Of a stretch of 64,000 bases of DNA, positions 5,929-58,751 are shown piece after piece. Position 1 is the first letter of the stretch. Each line of letters starts with the position of its first letter. Origin of the DNA: Candidatus Woesearchaeota archaeon (GTDB lineage: Archaea; Nanobdellota; Nanobdellia; SCGC-AAA011-G17; GW2011-AR20); NCBI GenBank assembly GCA_016203115.1, contig JACQNJ010000019.1:724-64723 (forward strand), given 5' to 3'. Both the position numbers and the translations under genes were made by a program. The notes under the pieces were generated by a model. That model did not search any database, was not told the DNA's origin, and saw nothing but the letters and a program-made list of their open reading frames with translations.

Positions 5929-6015
5929 GGGAGCGTAGTACAGCCCGGTTTAGTATTGCCGGCTCCAGTGTTTTGGAGTCACCGGTAGACGCAGGTTCAA
6001 ATCCTGCCGTTCCCA
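5929..6015 (+). tRNA. tRNA-Trp (CCA) with a 12-nt intron at 37/38
   Basis: Acceptor stem GGGAGCG/CGTTCCC with discriminator A73. D-stem GTAC/GTAT. Anticodon stem GCCGG/CCGGT. Loop CTCCAG[TGTTTTGGAGTC]A; the intron TGGAG pairs with exon CTCCA (BHB-like). T-arm GCAGG-TTCAAAT-CCTGC. No encoded CCA. Confidence 0.85.
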
Positions 6016-21424: not shown

Positions 21425-21510
21425 GGGCCGGTAGTTTAGTGGCTATAACGACGCCCTTACAATTTAGATGAGAAAGGCGTAGGTCGCATGTTCGAATCAT
21501 GCCCGGCCCA
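21425..21510 (+). tRNA. tRNA-Val (UAC) with a ~13-nt intron
   Basis: Acceptor stem GGGCCGG/CCGGCCC with discriminator A. Anticodon stem ACGCC/GGCGT. Loop CTTACA[ATTTAGATGAGAA]A. T-arm GCATG-TTCGAAT-CATGC. Confidence 0.8.
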
Positions 21511-27763: not shown

Positions 27764-27876
27764 GGGCTTGTAGTTTAATCTGGATAGAATAATCGGCTTC
27801 GGAAAGAAGGAGCAATGAGATGAGCAAATCTTCTTGTGGATACCGATTGATTGGGGTTCAAATCCTCACAGGCCCG
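27764..27876 (+). tRNA. tRNA-Arg (UCG) with a ~39-nt intron
   Basis: Acceptor stem GGGCTTG/CAGGCCC with discriminator G. Anticodon stem ATCGG/CCGAT. Loop CTTCGG[39 nt containing AAGAAG...CTTCTT hairpin]A. T-arm TGGGG-TTCAAAT-CCTCA. Confidence 0.7.
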
Positions 27877-34413: not shown

Positions 34414-34983
34414 TTAACTCTTTCCTCTATTCCTATGAGCTCTCAAGCTAGGTCTTACTTTTTCATATCCCTTACCCTTACCAGCAAGTCCTCTGCTTTT
34501 TCTTCCTGCAGAAGTCAATCCTCTATAAACCCTGCCAGAAGTATTTTTCAGCCACTTCATATCTTTGTACTTACTTACTAACTCTCTATCCACTAAAATA
34601 ACTTCATAGAATTTATGAGTCCCATCTACTCCAATTTGATAAGAATTCAAGATTTCACAATTAGGATATTTTTTCTGAGCTCTTTCCTCGGCAATCCACT
34701 GGTAGCTTTTCCCAACAATCTTCTTTCTTCTCATATGCTTGCTTCTTCTGCCTTTTCTTATTTTTGGTCTTTGCCTATTGCTTTTGCCAAGTCTTACTCT
34801 AGCTAAAACATATCCTTGTTTTGCTTTATAACCCAAACTCCTTGCCCTGTCAATTCTTGTAGGTCTTTCTATTCTCACAACAGAATTGCCTTCCCTCCAT
34901 GTAACTAGTCTCTCCTGCACAAGAGTTCCTAAAGATTCTTTAGGCTTCTTCCATAATTGTTTAACTTGGCTGTAAAGGCTCAT
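34414..34983 (-). CDS. rpl15e: 50S ribosomal protein L15e
   Basis: Full-length similarity to L15e (...RLGYKAKQGYV..RVR..). Confidence 0.9.
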   Translation of the reverse strand: MSLYSQVKQLWKKPKESLGTLVQERLVTWREGNSVVRIERPTRIDRARSLGYKAKQGYVLARVRLGKSNRQRPKIRKGRRSKHMRRKKIVGKSYQWIAEERAQKKYPNCEILNSYQIGVDGTHKFYEVILVDRELVSKYKDMKWLKNTSGRVYRGLTSAGRKSRGLAGKGKGYEKVRPSLRAHRNRGKS

Positions 34984-36260: not shown

Positions 36261-36452
36261 ATGAATGCAACAAAAGGGTTATTTAAGCTTGTAATAGGGA
36301 TAATTTTAGTGGTTGCTGCATTATGGGTATCAACAACATATATTGGATGGGGCAAGGCAGCATTAGATCTGCTCCAAGGCTCAATAATCTTATTTGTAAT
36401 TTTAGTGGGTTTTATTGTGTTCATAATAGGATTAACAGATCTAAAAGCCTAA
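36261..36452 (+). CDS. small two-TM membrane protein (63 aa)
   Basis: SD AATAGGGGG upstream. Hydrophobic. Confidence 0.4.
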   Translation: MNATKGLFKLVIGIILVVAALWVSTTYIGWGKAALDLLQGSIILFVILVGFIVFIIGLTDLKA

Positions 36453-37181
36453 TCTTTTAACTTTCTTTTTTATTTTCTTAAGAATGCTACCTTTAGAATG
36501 CTCTTTTTTAATTTTTGGTTTAATCTTGGACTTTTTAACAATTTTCTCAGGTTGAGGAGTTTTTTTCTTTATTTTTTTCTTTGGTTTCTTCTTGGCAATT
36601 TTCTTTTTTTTCGCAGCCTTCTTCTTGGCTTTATTAGGTTTTGCCTCTTCCTCTATAACTTCAATCTTAAAATTTTCTATTTCAGTAATATCCTTCTCTA
36701 TCAAACCAATTTCTTCTTTAATTTCTGCAATAGATTTCTCCTTATTCTCCTCAATTAATAATTTACCGCAATCAACGCATTTAAAATCATGTTCCATTGC
36801 TTCCTCAAGCTTAGCTCTCACATGGTTATCTGGGCATTTAAAAAAATTCTTAGTTTCCTGCTCTGTTAAAATATGTTTTAATTCTTTCAGTCGCTCATTT
36901 TTCCTTTTAAGCAGTAGTTCTTTAGCATAATTCATGTTAAAAGTCCAGTAATAGATATACCACCCCTTCTCTTTGTCCTTTTTCCTTACAGAATAAACAA
37001 GATTATGGGCATGTAAAGAATAAAGAATATTTCTGACAGTATTTATGTTTAATCTCAAATCTTCTGCAAGTTTAAACTCACTAACATTCTTTTGGTTATG
37101 CAATCCTCTAAAAACCTTAATTGAGTCTTCTGTAGAAACATTCCTAAGAAACTCCTCAAGAATAGCATGCAGATTTCTCAT
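36441..37181 (-). CDS. tfe: transcription factor E (TFE alpha) with a Lys-rich C-terminal extension
   Basis: N-terminal winged helix, CPDNH...CVDCG zinc ribbon, then a roughly 60-aa KKK-rich tail. Confidence 0.75.
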   Translation of the reverse strand: MRNLHAILEEFLRNVSTEDSIKVFRGLHNQKNVSEFKLAEDLRLNINTVRNILYSLHAHNLVYSVRKKDKEKGWYIYYWTFNMNYAKELLLKRKNERLKELKHILTEQETKNFFKCPDNHVRAKLEEAMEHDFKCVDCGKLLIEENKEKSIAEIKEEIGLIEKDITEIENFKIEVIEEEAKPNKAKKKAAKKKKIAKKKPKKKIKKKTPQPEKIVKKSKIKPKIKKEHSKGSILKKIKKKVKRLGF

Positions 37182-37320
37182 AATAAGATTTTACTGTGAG
37201 AAAGTGTTTAAAAACTTTTTTATAATAGGAAATATTCACTATTAAGAAATGATGAGAAAAGTTTTAATAAATAGTTCCTCAAATTTTTAGATATAATCAT
37301 GAAAAGAGGTGTATATCAAG

Positions 37321-37779
37321 ATGGGATTATTCTCAAATAAGAAAGAAAGACCAGAAATGCCCAAGCCAGAAATGTATAGTTTCGATGCTCCAAAAATTCC
37401 AAATTTGGAGAGGCTGCAGTTTCCAGAGCCAAATTTCCCAGAATCAAAAATGAGCATGCCAAGAAAAATGGTTTTACCTGATGAACTTAGCTCCATAAAA
37501 AGGTCAGTTGCAATATCTCCAGCTCCTCCAAGCATTGCATCTTCTTCTGATGAACGTTATGTTTCAAAAAAAGGTCTTTTTATTAAAATAGAAAAATACA
37601 AAGAAGCTCTAGAGAGCATTGAGCAAATAAAAACAAGGATTAATGAAATTGAGAATGCCCTGATGAATCTGGAAAAAATGAGAAGGCAGGAAGACCTAGA
37701 AATAGAGAAGTGGAGGCGCGATTTAAACAGTATTAAGCAAAAACTATTAGGGATAGACAACACATTGTTTAGAGAATGA
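37321..37779 (+). CDS. hypothetical coiled-coil protein
   Basis: ATG at 37321 with SD GAAAAGAGGTG about 8 nt upstream. The ORF track's GTG at 37309 is less likely. Confidence 0.5.
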   Translation: MGLFSNKKERPEMPKPEMYSFDAPKIPNLERLQFPEPNFPESKMSMPRKMVLPDELSSIKRSVAISPAPPSIASSSDERYVSKKGLFIKIEKYKEALESIEQIKTRINEIENALMNLEKMRRQEDLEIEKWRRDLNSIKQKLLGIDNTLFRE

Positions 37780-38201
37780 AAAAAAAGATTAGAAGAAAAG
37801 TAGTGCACAGAGAGCCAGAGCAGATCTATTTTGAAATCTATGAACCAAGAGAGTTGAGAAGAAAAATCCTTTCAAGTGCTATAGAGATTGTAGACACATT
37901 AAAAAACTACGAGCTCTCAAAAGATACAAGGTCAGCTAAAGAAAAACAGTTACGCCATGCAAAAAGTGTCTTTTCACATATGAAAAGCAGTTTTAGAAGC
38001 CTAAAGAGTTCTCTGCCACCAGTCCCAAAATATGCACTGCCAAAACCAGAAAAAAAACATTTCTTATTTAAAGAAGTAAAAGTAGAAGTTAAAAAAACAA
38101 AAGAGTTTCCCCCTCAAAATATGCTTCCGCAAGAATCTTCAGCAGTAAAAAGGCTGGAAAATGAATTGTCCCAGATAAGGAACAAATTAGAAAGTATTTA
38201 G
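37776..38201 (+). CDS. hypothetical basic protein
   Basis: ATGA overlap with the upstream gene. Confidence 0.5.
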   Translation: MKKKIRRKVVHREPEQIYFEIYEPRELRRKILSSAIEIVDTLKNYELSKDTRSAKEKQLRHAKSVFSHMKSSFRSLKSSLPPVPKYALPKPEKKHFLFKEVKVEVKKTKEFPPQNMLPQESSAVKRLENELSQIRNKLESI

Positions 38202-38240: not shown

Positions 38241-38774
38241 ATGAAAAAAGTCCTGATACTAATAATCCTTATTTCCTTAATCAGCCCAGTTGTTCTTGCC
38301 GGAGAAATCCACCGTTTGGATCTCAACAAAAATCCAGTAGAAGTAAGAGAAATAAGAGAAGGAGATTTAGTTGAGATTAGCATTGGAAACAAAACGCAAA
38401 AAATAATTCTAAAGAAAGTTTTATTTCCTAAGAACATAATCAACTTGGCATTATTCATAGAGGGGTCAGATACACCCTCATACATATCAATGAGTTATAA
38501 CCAGCAGATGAGGCTTGACTTTTATAATGATAAAGTAGATGATATGATTTTGGTTCTCGAGTCCCTTTCACCAGAGCAGGCGAGAATAATCTTCAGGTCA
38601 ATGGATGAGAAGGGAAACCCTGTAATAACTAATCAAGAAATAGGAGGACTATCAAAAATAACAGGAGAAGAAGTAAAAGGAAATAATGCTCCAAATTTAA
38701 AAACAGGGATTATTATCATTGCGAGCATCATTATAGTAGGATTAATAATCTCATTTATCTTCTTAAAAAAGTGA
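38241..38774 (+). CDS. secreted protein with a C-terminal TM anchor
   Basis: Signal peptide and a C-terminal hydrophobic helix followed by KK. Confidence 0.55.
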   Translation: MKKVLILIILISLISPVVLAGEIHRLDLNKNPVEVREIREGDLVEISIGNKTQKIILKKVLFPKNIINLALFIEGSDTPSYISMSYNQQMRLDFYNDKVDDMILVLESLSPEQARIIFRSMDEKGNPVITNQEIGGLSKITGEEVKGNNAPNLKTGIIIIASIIIVGLIISFIFLKK

Positions 38775-39425
38775 TTACCTCTTTTTCTTTTTAAAAGACA
38801 GCTTGAAAATGGTCAATACCCCCAAAATCAAAGCAAGGGCTAGTAAAGAAAATGCTAAATACTCAAAAGTCTTGTCATCTCTAACAACCCCATCACCAAA
38901 GGAAATATCACTGCATCCAACAACATTCTCATATCTGCATAAAGTATTGCTGCACAGATCTAAAGTGCATGCTTCATTATCATCGCAATCTTCATCATCG
39001 CTGCATTCATAAAAATTTTCTTCATCTGAGGCATTGCTATTTTTATCTGATTCATTAGTTTCTTCTAATTCAACACTTTCTTCTAACTCCTCAATCCCAA
39101 AAGGGCATACATTATTGTTACATTCATCTAAGTCACATTGACAGTCATCTTCACATTCAAATTGAATTTTGAAAGAAGCCTTTTCATAATCTGCTTTCCT
39201 GAAATCAAAGTAAACATCCTTAATCCTCTTGTCTTTTGATACAATAAATTGGTCATTGTTAACGCAAAGCATAGTACTCCCATTTACAGAGGCTAAAAGA
39301 GTGATATTCTTGCCATCAATAAGGAAGCTTTCACCCGGCTTTAAGGTTACATCAAATGTTTTTACAGCACTCGCAAGAGGCAATAAAAAAAGCAATAAAC
39401 CTAGCAATATCCATAGTACTCTCAT
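38775..39425 (-). CDS. Cys-rich acidic secreted protein with a C-terminal TM anchor
   Basis: Start trimmed to MRVLWILLG, because the longer ORF would overlap the tRNA at 39478. About 20 Cys in D/E/C-rich stretches. Confidence 0.55.
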   Translation of the reverse strand: MRVLWILLGLLLFLLPLASAVKTFDVTLKPGESFLIDGKNITLLASVNGSTMLCVNNDQFIVSKDKRIKDVYFDFRKADYEKASFKIQFECEDDCQCDLDECNNNVCPFGIEELEESVELEETNESDKNSNASDEENFYECSDDEDCDDNEACTLDLCSNTLCRYENVVGCSDISFGDGVVRDDKTFEYLAFSLLALALILGVLTIFKLSFKKKKR

Positions 39426-39477
39426 AATTATTAATATTATCAAAAAGGTTAAAAAGCTATAGAAAAGGATAAATCTT

Positions 39478-39588
39478 AGCGGGGTAGGACAGCTAGGAGT
39501 GTCCGTTGAAGCATAATTCACTGCTGCGGAAGGCTCATAACCTGGTTGAGAGACCCAAAGGTCGTTGGTTCAAATCCAACCCTCGCTA
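39478..39588 (+). tRNA. tRNA-Met (CAU), probably initiator type, with intron(s)
   Basis: A1:U72 acceptor stem AGCGGGG/CCTCGCT with discriminator A, typical of archaeal tRNAiMet. D-arm GGAC/GTCC. CTCATAA anticodon loop. Variable loop AGGTC. T-arm GTTGG-TTCAAAT-CCAAC. About 36 extra nt flank the anticodon loop and need two non-canonical introns or one odd intron to fold. Confidence 0.55.
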
Positions 39589-39596
39589 CTTCTAAT

Positions 39597-39878
39597 ATGG
39601 CAACAAAAGACCAAGTAATAGAACAATTAAAGAAAGTAGTAGATCCTGAGCTAGGTATGGATATTTATACTTTAGGCTTAGTCTACAACATTGACATAAA
39701 AGATAAAAAAATCAATATAAAAATGACTTTAACTTCTCCAATGTGCCCTTATGGCCCTCAAATAGTTGAAGATGTTAAATCGAGAATTAAAGCACTAAAT
39801 GCAGAACTAGTTATAGAACTTGTTTTTAGTCCACCATGGGAAATATCAAAAGAAGTAAGGTCTATTTTAGGAATATAA
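39597..39878 (+). CDS. DUF59/MIP18-family Fe-S assembly protein
   Basis: Start trimmed to MATKDQ because the ORF-track N-terminus overlaps the tRNA. Conserved Cys in TSPMCPYG. Confidence 0.7.
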   Translation: MATKDQVIEQLKKVVDPELGMDIYTLGLVYNIDIKDKKINIKMTLTSPMCPYGPQIVEDVKSRIKALNAELVIELVFSPPWEISKEVRSILGI

Positions 39879-58666: not shown

Positions 58667-58751
58667 TGCGCGAGCCGAGATTCGAACTCGGGCCACTGCC
58701 TCTTTGCATAAGCATGGCAAGGCAATATAATAACCACTATACTACTCGCGC
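58667..58751 (-). tRNA. tRNA-Gly (GCC) with a 13-nt intron at 37/38
   Basis: Reverse complement GCGCGAG-TA-GTAT-AGTGGTTA-TTAT-A-TTGCC-TTGCCA[TGCTTATGCAAAG]A-GGCAG-TGGC-CCGAG-TTCGAAT-CTCGG-CTCGCGC-A. The D-loop is the classic AGUGGUUA. Confidence 0.75.

Follow-up and report, generated by a model that had tools for sequence, protein, structure and literature searches.

Positions 39478–39588 (+ strand) of the window, the 64,000-nt stretch of Candidatus Woesearchaeota (DPANN) DNA analysed here, almost certainly hold an initiator tRNA-Met(CAU) gene whose three exons are separated by two putatively protein-spliced introns of the bulge-helix-bulge (BHB) type. An initial annotation of this DNA had proposed an archaeal initiator tRNA-Met gene at the site, and the proposal held: the spliced product, a syntenic intron-less ortholog and the BHB motifs agree. 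The gene ends, D stem (GGAC/GTCC), anticodon loop (CTCATAA), variable loop (AGGTC) and T arm (GTTGG-TTCAAAT-CCAAC) that it quoted are all in the sequence, which runs AGCGGGG-TA-GGAC-AGCTAGGAGT-GTCC-G-TTG on the 5′ side and AGGTC-GTTGG-TTCAAAT-CCAAC-CCTCGCT-A on the 3′ side. Its count of about 36 extra nucleotides around the anticodon arm, divided as 23 + 13, was also right; both lengths equal the gaps in a MAFFT alignment with the intron-less ortholog from a sister contig, L135.

Gene identity and predicted mature tRNA

In-silico splicing, by removal of 39509–39531 and 39540–39552 (36 nt in total) from 39478–39588, leaves a 75-nt product, AGCGGGGTAGGACAGCTAGGAGTGTCCGTTGGGCTCATAACCCAAAGGTCGTTGGTTCAAATCCAACCCTCGCTA. 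ARAGORN reads this 75-mer as tRNA-Met(CAT) with the anticodon stem UUGGG/CCCAA (5/5 Watson-Crick pairs), and its minimum free energy (MFE) structure is the cloverleaf (−27.5 kcal/mol). The predicted mature junctions are G29|G30 and A37|A38 (...GUCCGUUG|GGCUCAUA|ACCCAAAGG...). Exon 1 (39478–39508, +; tRNA 1–29) supplies the acceptor 5′ strand, the D arm, G26 and U27 U28 G29, and is identical to the corresponding part of the L135 gene. Exon 2 (39532–39539, +; tRNA 30–37) consists of G30 G31 and CUCAUA, with the anticodon CAU at 39536–39538 (+) within the CTCATAA loop. Exon 3 (39553–39588, +; tRNA 38–73) contributes A38, CCCAA, the variable loop AGGUC, the T arm, the acceptor 3′ strand and the discriminator A; CCA is not encoded at the tRNA 3′ end. 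The acceptor stem has an A1:U72 terminal pair (A 39478 with T 39587) and one G5.U68 pair.

After splicing, the sequence has the cloverleaf of Rfam RF00005, with stems of 7/4/5/5 bp, a 7-nt anticodon loop and the conserved bases, for which U8, A14, G18G19, G53-T54-Psi55-C56 and A58 were tested. The three exons follow each other in collinear order on a single strand, in a span of 111 nt; this is not the layout of a split or permuted gene. An A1:U72 terminal pair is a feature of archaeal and eukaryotic initiators. Three consecutive G:C pairs in the anticodon stem are a near-universal initiator mark (PMC7531240), and these pairs, G29–G31:C39–C41, are present only with the junctions 29/30 and 37/38. 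Judged by its CAU anticodon, A1:U72 and G29–G31:C39–C41, the tRNA is an archaeal initiator.

BHB geometry at both introns

Under the BHB rule applied, a 4-bp helix separates two bulges of 3 nt, and the cut falls after the second nucleotide of each bulge. Intron 1 (AAGCATAATTCACTGCTGCGGAA; 23 nt; 39509–39531, +; gene positions 32–54) lies at 29/30, a listed non-canonical intron site (PMC4090602), and has a full hBHBh′ motif. All four pairs of its central helix form between 39503–39506 (CCGU, tRNA 24–27) and 39526–39529 (GCGG), and the bulges are UG|A and AA|G, 3 nt each. The inner helix has 4 bp (39510–39513 with 39522–39525, AGCA/UGCU); the outer helix has only 2 bp, G22:C32 and U23.G31, and its formation requires melting of the D stem. 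With the full motif defined as a central helix of 4 bp, an outer helix of at least 2 bp and an inner helix of at least 4 bp, the gene contains one such motif, and 0.09 are expected per shuffled gene.

Intron 2 (ACCTGGTTGAGAG; 13 nt; 39540–39552, +; gene positions 63–75) lies at the canonical position 37/38 and has a relaxed BHB. Its central helix is likewise 4/4 paired, 39534–39537 (CUCA, tRNA 32–35) with 39547–39550 (UGAG), between 3-nt bulges UA|A and AG|A. The outer helix of 2 bp is the anticodon-stem pairs G30:C40 and G31:C39, and the inner helix is replaced by a 6-nt loop. Such relaxed motifs are common by chance (approximately 7.7 expected per shuffled 111-mer), so the call of intron 2 rests on its position together with the comparative data. 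The same caution holds for the locus as a whole: a generic BHB scan (4-bp helix, at least 2 bp outer) of the gene with 60-nt flanks returned 28 candidates, many of them chance matches, and the motif alone therefore cannot locate the introns; the tRNA frame and the orthologs are needed.

The junctions first proposed for this gene, at gene positions 31–53 and 69–81, are displaced by 1 nt for intron 1 and by 6 nt for intron 2. The accompanying view that there are two introns, both at non-canonical positions, survives for the number of introns and for intron 1 (29/30) but not for intron 2, since 37/38 is the canonical position. The other option raised at that time, an unusual BHB arrangement, was not borne out, as at both sites the central helix is 4/4 paired, the bulges are 3 nt long and the outer helix has 2 bp.

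Orthologs with zero, two and three introns

Syntenic contigs were reached through L15e proteins 77–78% identical to the L15e of the window (34414–34983, −). L135 and L141, from sister Woesearchaeota, share with the window the order malic enzyme / FeS_assembly_P / tRNA / ... / TFE / MFS / L15e, and both carry an intron-less 75-nt tRNAiMet gene upstream of FeS_assembly_P. The only difference between this tRNA and the predicted spliced product is a compensatory change of one T-stem pair, C50:G64 for U50:A64. The L135 gene scores 61.9 bits against Rfam RF00005 (gathering threshold 29), is called tRNA-Met by ARAGORN and has the anticodon arm UUGGG CUCAUAA CCCAA. In an unguided MAFFT alignment with it, the gaps of 23 and 13 nt fall exactly at the 29/30 and 37/38 junctions. 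We regard this intron-less syntenic ortholog as the decisive evidence for the predicted junctions.

A third syntenic tRNAiMet gene, in L138 (GCA_964505985.1; CAZDKM010000002.1, 4612–4792, −), has three introns, at 29/30 (22 nt), 37/38 (12 nt) and 44/45 (16 nt), each with a 4/4 central helix; that of the third, which lies in the variable loop, is CCCA/UGGG and has no outer helix. The mature L138 tRNAiMet is the same sequence apart from compensated acceptor pairs, and ARAGORN found no tRNA in the 18-kb L138 locus. Intron number in the orthologous tRNAiMet of three sister genomes is thus 0, 2 and 3, which may record very recent and precise loss and gain of BHB introns. If true, the series would be a natural system for studying how BHB introns are lost and acquired. 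No exact-sequence record was found for the neighbouring FeS-assembly and malic enzyme proteins.

Covariation in a wider DPANN family

Homologs were taken from a pattern scan of GTDB species genomes (at least 120 matches) and a more specific scan of JGI metagenomes. Among the matches listed, at least 20 further tRNAiMet genes have a 29/30 intron (18–40 nt), and at least 16 of these at least 20 also have a 37/38 intron. The named hosts are Woesearchaeota, Nanoarchaeia and a Nanohalarchaeota family. The anticodon stem is GGG/CCC in 20/20 of the homologs listed, and in every case the last nucleotides of the 37/38 insert (12–27 nt) are UGAG or UGGG followed by 2 nt, with A38-CCC immediately after. 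In a tblastn comparison of the window proteins with the pattern-derived loci, weak TFE-tRNAiMet synteny (L129, L016) was the only synteny seen, and no close relatives were found.

A covariation alignment was built from 15 sequences (99 columns), combining the exons with intron ends at fixed offsets; because it uses a positional intron model and pattern-selected sequences, it somewhat favours the two-intron model. In this alignment 12 pairs of the cloverleaf and intron helices covary and pairing reaches 98%, compared with 34–49% in slid controls, and the observed covariation score was reached by 0/500 shuffles. The split anticodon stem covaries across both introns, with five pair types at 27:43 and three at 28:42. 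The BHB1 fold is 95% paired versus 27–47% when slid; its central helix is 96.7% paired with two covarying pairs, and the inner helix of intron 1 covaries at 5/5 pairs. The BHB2 central helix is kept in 96.7% of cells.

Changes at tRNA position 24 are matched at position 11, its partner in the D stem, and also in the intron: nine sequences have G/C/G and six have A/U/A. Both the D stem and the BHB1 helix are therefore maintained, as alternative pairings. The joint variation of tRNA positions 11 and 24 and the third-from-last nucleotide of the intron helix strand shows selection on a predicted precursor fold in competition with the D stem. A possible role for the 29/30 intron is that of a checkpoint on the supply of initiator tRNA, through ordered processing or quality control; alternatively, it might shield the gene from integrating elements. 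That it is an old element kept for a reason across Woesearchaeota, Nanoarchaeia and Nanohalarchaeota is a speculative idea, to which we give a low probability.

Alternative readings of the locus

The same tRNAiMet can be assembled with the introns at gene positions 31–53 and 69–81 (tRNA 28/29 and 43/44), giving the stem UUAGG/CCUGG. ARAGORN accepts that spliced product as tRNA-Met(CAT) as well, and the intron lengths of 23 and 13 nt are unchanged, but these junctions have no BHB (central helices 3/4 and 1/4 paired, outer helix 0), put two G.U pairs into the stem and abolish the initiator G29–G31:C39–C41. The ortholog alignment refutes them, the intron-less L135 gene reading UUGGG CUCAUAA CCCAA, and the GGG/CCC stem of the 20 homologs listed points the same way; the probability left to this placement is negligible. 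Nor is there much to be said for a single intron at 29/30 with the 13 extra nucleotides forming a long, class II-like variable arm, although ARAGORN does fit an 89-nt tRNA-Met, with an extra arm that is long, to the sequence freed of intron 1. The stem would then need several G.U pairs and GGG:CCC would be destroyed. To our knowledge, class II tRNAs in archaea are those for Leu and Ser only, which counts further against this reading. A variable arm of more than 10 nt is also at odds with the L135 gene, which does without the 13 nt, and with the insert itself, which has BHB geometry at 37/38; the homologous inserts (12–27 nt) end in UGAG/UGGG + 2 nt as a canonical BHB requires. We consider the single-intron reading extremely improbable.

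Of the readings that leave the two introns in place, the first concerns the tRNA species: CAU alone does not discriminate an initiator from an elongator tRNA-Met or from a tRNA-Ile2 with a modified C34. Against these species stand A1:U72 and the three G:C pairs at 29–31:39–41, both initiator features (for the G:C pairs, see PMC7531240), and the 5′ AGCGGGG, which is common to the archaeal iMet genes recovered by the pattern scan; an elongator or Ile2 tRNA is accordingly very improbable, if slightly less so than a single intron. The gene might instead be a decaying or silent pseudogene with a working iMet copy elsewhere, given that 64 kb of the genome is in view, which leaves room for a second copy, and that neither ARAGORN nor Rfam calls the unspliced gene. 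Decay fits poorly with exons identical, apart from a compensatory pair, to the intact gene of a sister species, with two insertions that keep precise BHB geometry in a two-intron design that covaries across many lineages, and with the conservation of the promoter-like box and of synteny. A pseudogene is unlikely, and it is the least improbable of the four readings set beside the preferred one, a functional initiator tRNA gene with introns at 29/30 and 37/38.

Detection and folding of the unspliced gene

The unspliced gene was not called by ARAGORN in the window, in the sub-region or with intron options. At a lowered threshold with intron options the program gave a tRNA-Phe at the site, which was rejected as spurious. 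No Rfam tRNA match was obtained at the gathering threshold, and in E-value mode the model sees the T arm only (14.6 bits). The failure of both programs is due to an intron outside the anticodon loop, and not to absence of the gene. The initial annotation had been ready to take the silence of tRNA predictors as evidence against a tRNA; ARAGORN and Rfam are indeed silent on the unspliced DNA, but this is a limit of the tools, and the gene is present. Folding of the pre-tRNA, which it had proposed as a check, gave a divided answer: a BHB motif is found at both sites, but the MFE fold of the full precursor shows BHB1 only approximately and does not display BHB2.

Genomic context and other tRNA genes of the window

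A TATA-like box, GTTAAAAA (39448–39455, +), lies at −30 to −23 from tRNA position 1 and is a probable archaeal promoter. A (T/G)TTAAAAA box is found at equal distance in L135 and L138, with the rest of the flank diverged. Downstream, the ATG of the FeS_assembly_P gene (PF01883; 39597–39878, +; Pfam E = 1.3e-18) begins 8 nt past the tRNA 3′ end; this spacing is also 8 nt in L135 and is 10 nt in L138, where the spacer contains a T6 run. The arrangement suggests a tRNA-mRNA co-transcript, in which tRNA 3′ processing would leave a nearly leaderless FeS_assembly_P mRNA. The divergent upstream gene (38775–39425, −) encodes a Cys-rich protein that has a hydrophobic segment at its N terminus and no Pfam match. 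As the initial annotation had noticed, mechanical ORF predictions on either side run into the tRNA gene (38775–39521, −, from a GTG, and 39546–39878, +); the plausible ATG starts at 39425 (−) and 39597 (+) leave a 171-nt intergenic space that holds it.

The divergent gene is one of the small genes forming a block upstream of the tRNA (38775–39425, −; 38241–38774, +; 37309–38201, +); none has a Pfam match, and their order is conserved in L135, L138 and L141. The gene for TFE (TFIIE-alpha; 36441–37181, −) is 2.3 kb away from tRNAiMet here, and in the distant DPANN loci L129 and L016 the two genes are immediate neighbours; their linkage is weak and possibly old. TFE, L15e and an archaeal-type ProRS in the window confirm an archaeal host, and the window G+C is 33%.

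Four other tRNA genes in the window were found by both ARAGORN and Rfam: tRNA-Trp(CCA) (5929–6015, +), tRNA-Val(UAC) (21425–21510, +), tRNA-Arg(UCG) (27764–27876, +; intron of approximately 40 nt) and tRNA-Gly(GCC) (58667–58751, −). All have an anticodon-loop intron, so that 5/5 tRNA genes of the window are interrupted. The default ARAGORN call at 5929, "tRNA-??? (cagt)", is an intron artefact and becomes tRNA-Trp with the intron option. A Pfam search of approximately 50 ORFs (at least 140 aa) of the 64-kb window revealed no gene for EndA, RtcB or another processing enzyme.

Proposed processing pathway

The pathway proposed here is inferred from established archaeal processing (PMC4090602, PMC5829648, PMC3239211). 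Transcription would start from the TATA-like box at −30 to −23, possibly together with the FeS-assembly gene 8 nt downstream. EndA, if present and competent at these sites as assumed, would cut after the second nucleotide of each 3-nt bulge, at four bulges in all. The intron 1 motif would form in an alternative fold in which tRNA 22–27, made up of the D-stem 3′ strand together with G26 and U27, pairs with the intron 3′ end and with G31 and C32, whereas intron 2 would adopt the classical motif, the anticodon-loop nucleotides 32–35 (CUCA) pairing with the intron UGAG on top of the anticodon stem. The two introns would probably form their motifs and be cut one after the other, because G31 and C32 are part of both motifs, BHB1 and BHB2, and because the D stem must be open for BHB1 to form. 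An RtcB-type ligase would then join the three exons. RNase P, RNase Z and, because CCA is not encoded, a CCA-adding enzyme would finish the ends, to give the predicted 75-nt tRNA with A1:U72, the stem UUGGG/CCCAA and the loop CUCAUAA.

Relation to known disrupted tRNA genes

Up to three introns per archaeal tRNA have been documented (PMC4090602, PMC3239211), and a survey of DPANN genomes that included one of Woesearchaeota covered tRNA genes with single, non-canonical and multiple introns together with loop inserts in EndA (PMC5829648). The architecture described here is already documented in kind: the 29/30 site and multi-intron tRNAs are known, and common tRNA finders miss such genes. Like the multi-intron tRNA genes first catalogued in Thermoproteales (PMC4090602, PMC4033280), the present gene combines a short intron at 37/38 with another short one at a listed non-canonical position; it also shares with them the hBHBh′/relaxed BHB motifs, a non-canonical motif that forms in an alternative local fold, and a standard mature tRNA. 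It differs from that catalogue in its host, a member of the Woesearchaeota (DPANN), and in its isoacceptor, the initiator. Orthologs of sister genomes that differ (0/2/3 introns) recall the rapid intron turnover in Thermoproteales of Fujishima et al. (2010), as far as that work is reported in PMC4090602 and PMC4033280. The intron transposition of Thermoproteales, to the same extent, concerns a different phylum, and in the window no sequence-similar introns were seen in the other tRNAs and hence no evidence for transposition.

The gene is of the same lineage as the DPANN disrupted tRNA genes linked to broad-specificity EndA (ARMAN-2 epsilon2, PMC3239211; L3-loop alpha4, PMC5829648), and shares with them a high intron fraction (5/5 in the window) and non-canonical positions. 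In contrast to those systems, its 29/30 motif is strict and not relaxed, and even a strict enzyme might accept it. The EndA of the present host may be of the alpha4+L3, (alpha-beta)2 or epsilon2 type. In a DPANN relative, Nanoarchaeum equitans, the same tRNA species is disrupted as a split initiator tRNA-Met encoded in separate halves. The positions 29/30 or 30/31 are also split sites, in tRNA-Ala of Caldivirga maquilingensis and tRNA-Lys of N. equitans (PMC4090602), and processing there is likewise of the BHB type. Unlike in split tRNAs, the three exons of the present gene are contiguous, collinear and on one strand, and would be spliced in cis and not in trans.

The known workings of BHB introns are unchanged by this gene; it is of value for annotation and for its 0/2/3-intron ortholog series. 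For annotation, ARAGORN and the Rfam tRNA model both overlook an essential initiator tRNA gene, and they do so because one of its introns is outside the anticodon loop. Incomplete tRNA sets in DPANN have been attributed to undetected disrupted genes (PMC5829648), and a 2026 survey of Nanobdellota with tRNAscan-SE still reports "missing" tRNAs (bioRxiv 10.64898/2026.05.13.725050). Where a tRNA appears to be missing, multi-intron genes should be sought too, beside split genes or true loss. For evolution, the 0/2/3-intron sister genomes and the recurrence of the 29/30 intron across several DPANN phyla provide compact data on BHB turnover outside Thermoproteales.

Other interruptions of archaeal tRNAiMet genes

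Two MAGs labelled Methanosarcinales (L052 and L093) sit among the DPANN-type sequences, which may reflect binning or labelling errors. The L093 gene (7622–7757, +) has the 29/30 intron and an insertion of approximately 29 nt just after the anticodon stem (region 43–45), and has no 37/38 intron. In Thermoplasmata MAGs (L003, L006, L007, L010–L012 and at least some 60 more loci), the D loop of tRNAiMet contains an insertion of approximately 28–33 nt with conserved ends (...CAGGAAA[RCG...CCTGAAA]TCCC) and a covarying GC-rich hairpin, which appears to be a lineage-wide D-loop intron. In Micrarchaeota, tRNAiMet has an intron at 30/31, in the 5′ strand of the anticodon stem, in L016 and L073, and one after position 9, before the D stem, in L017, L033, L075, L103, L106 and L107.
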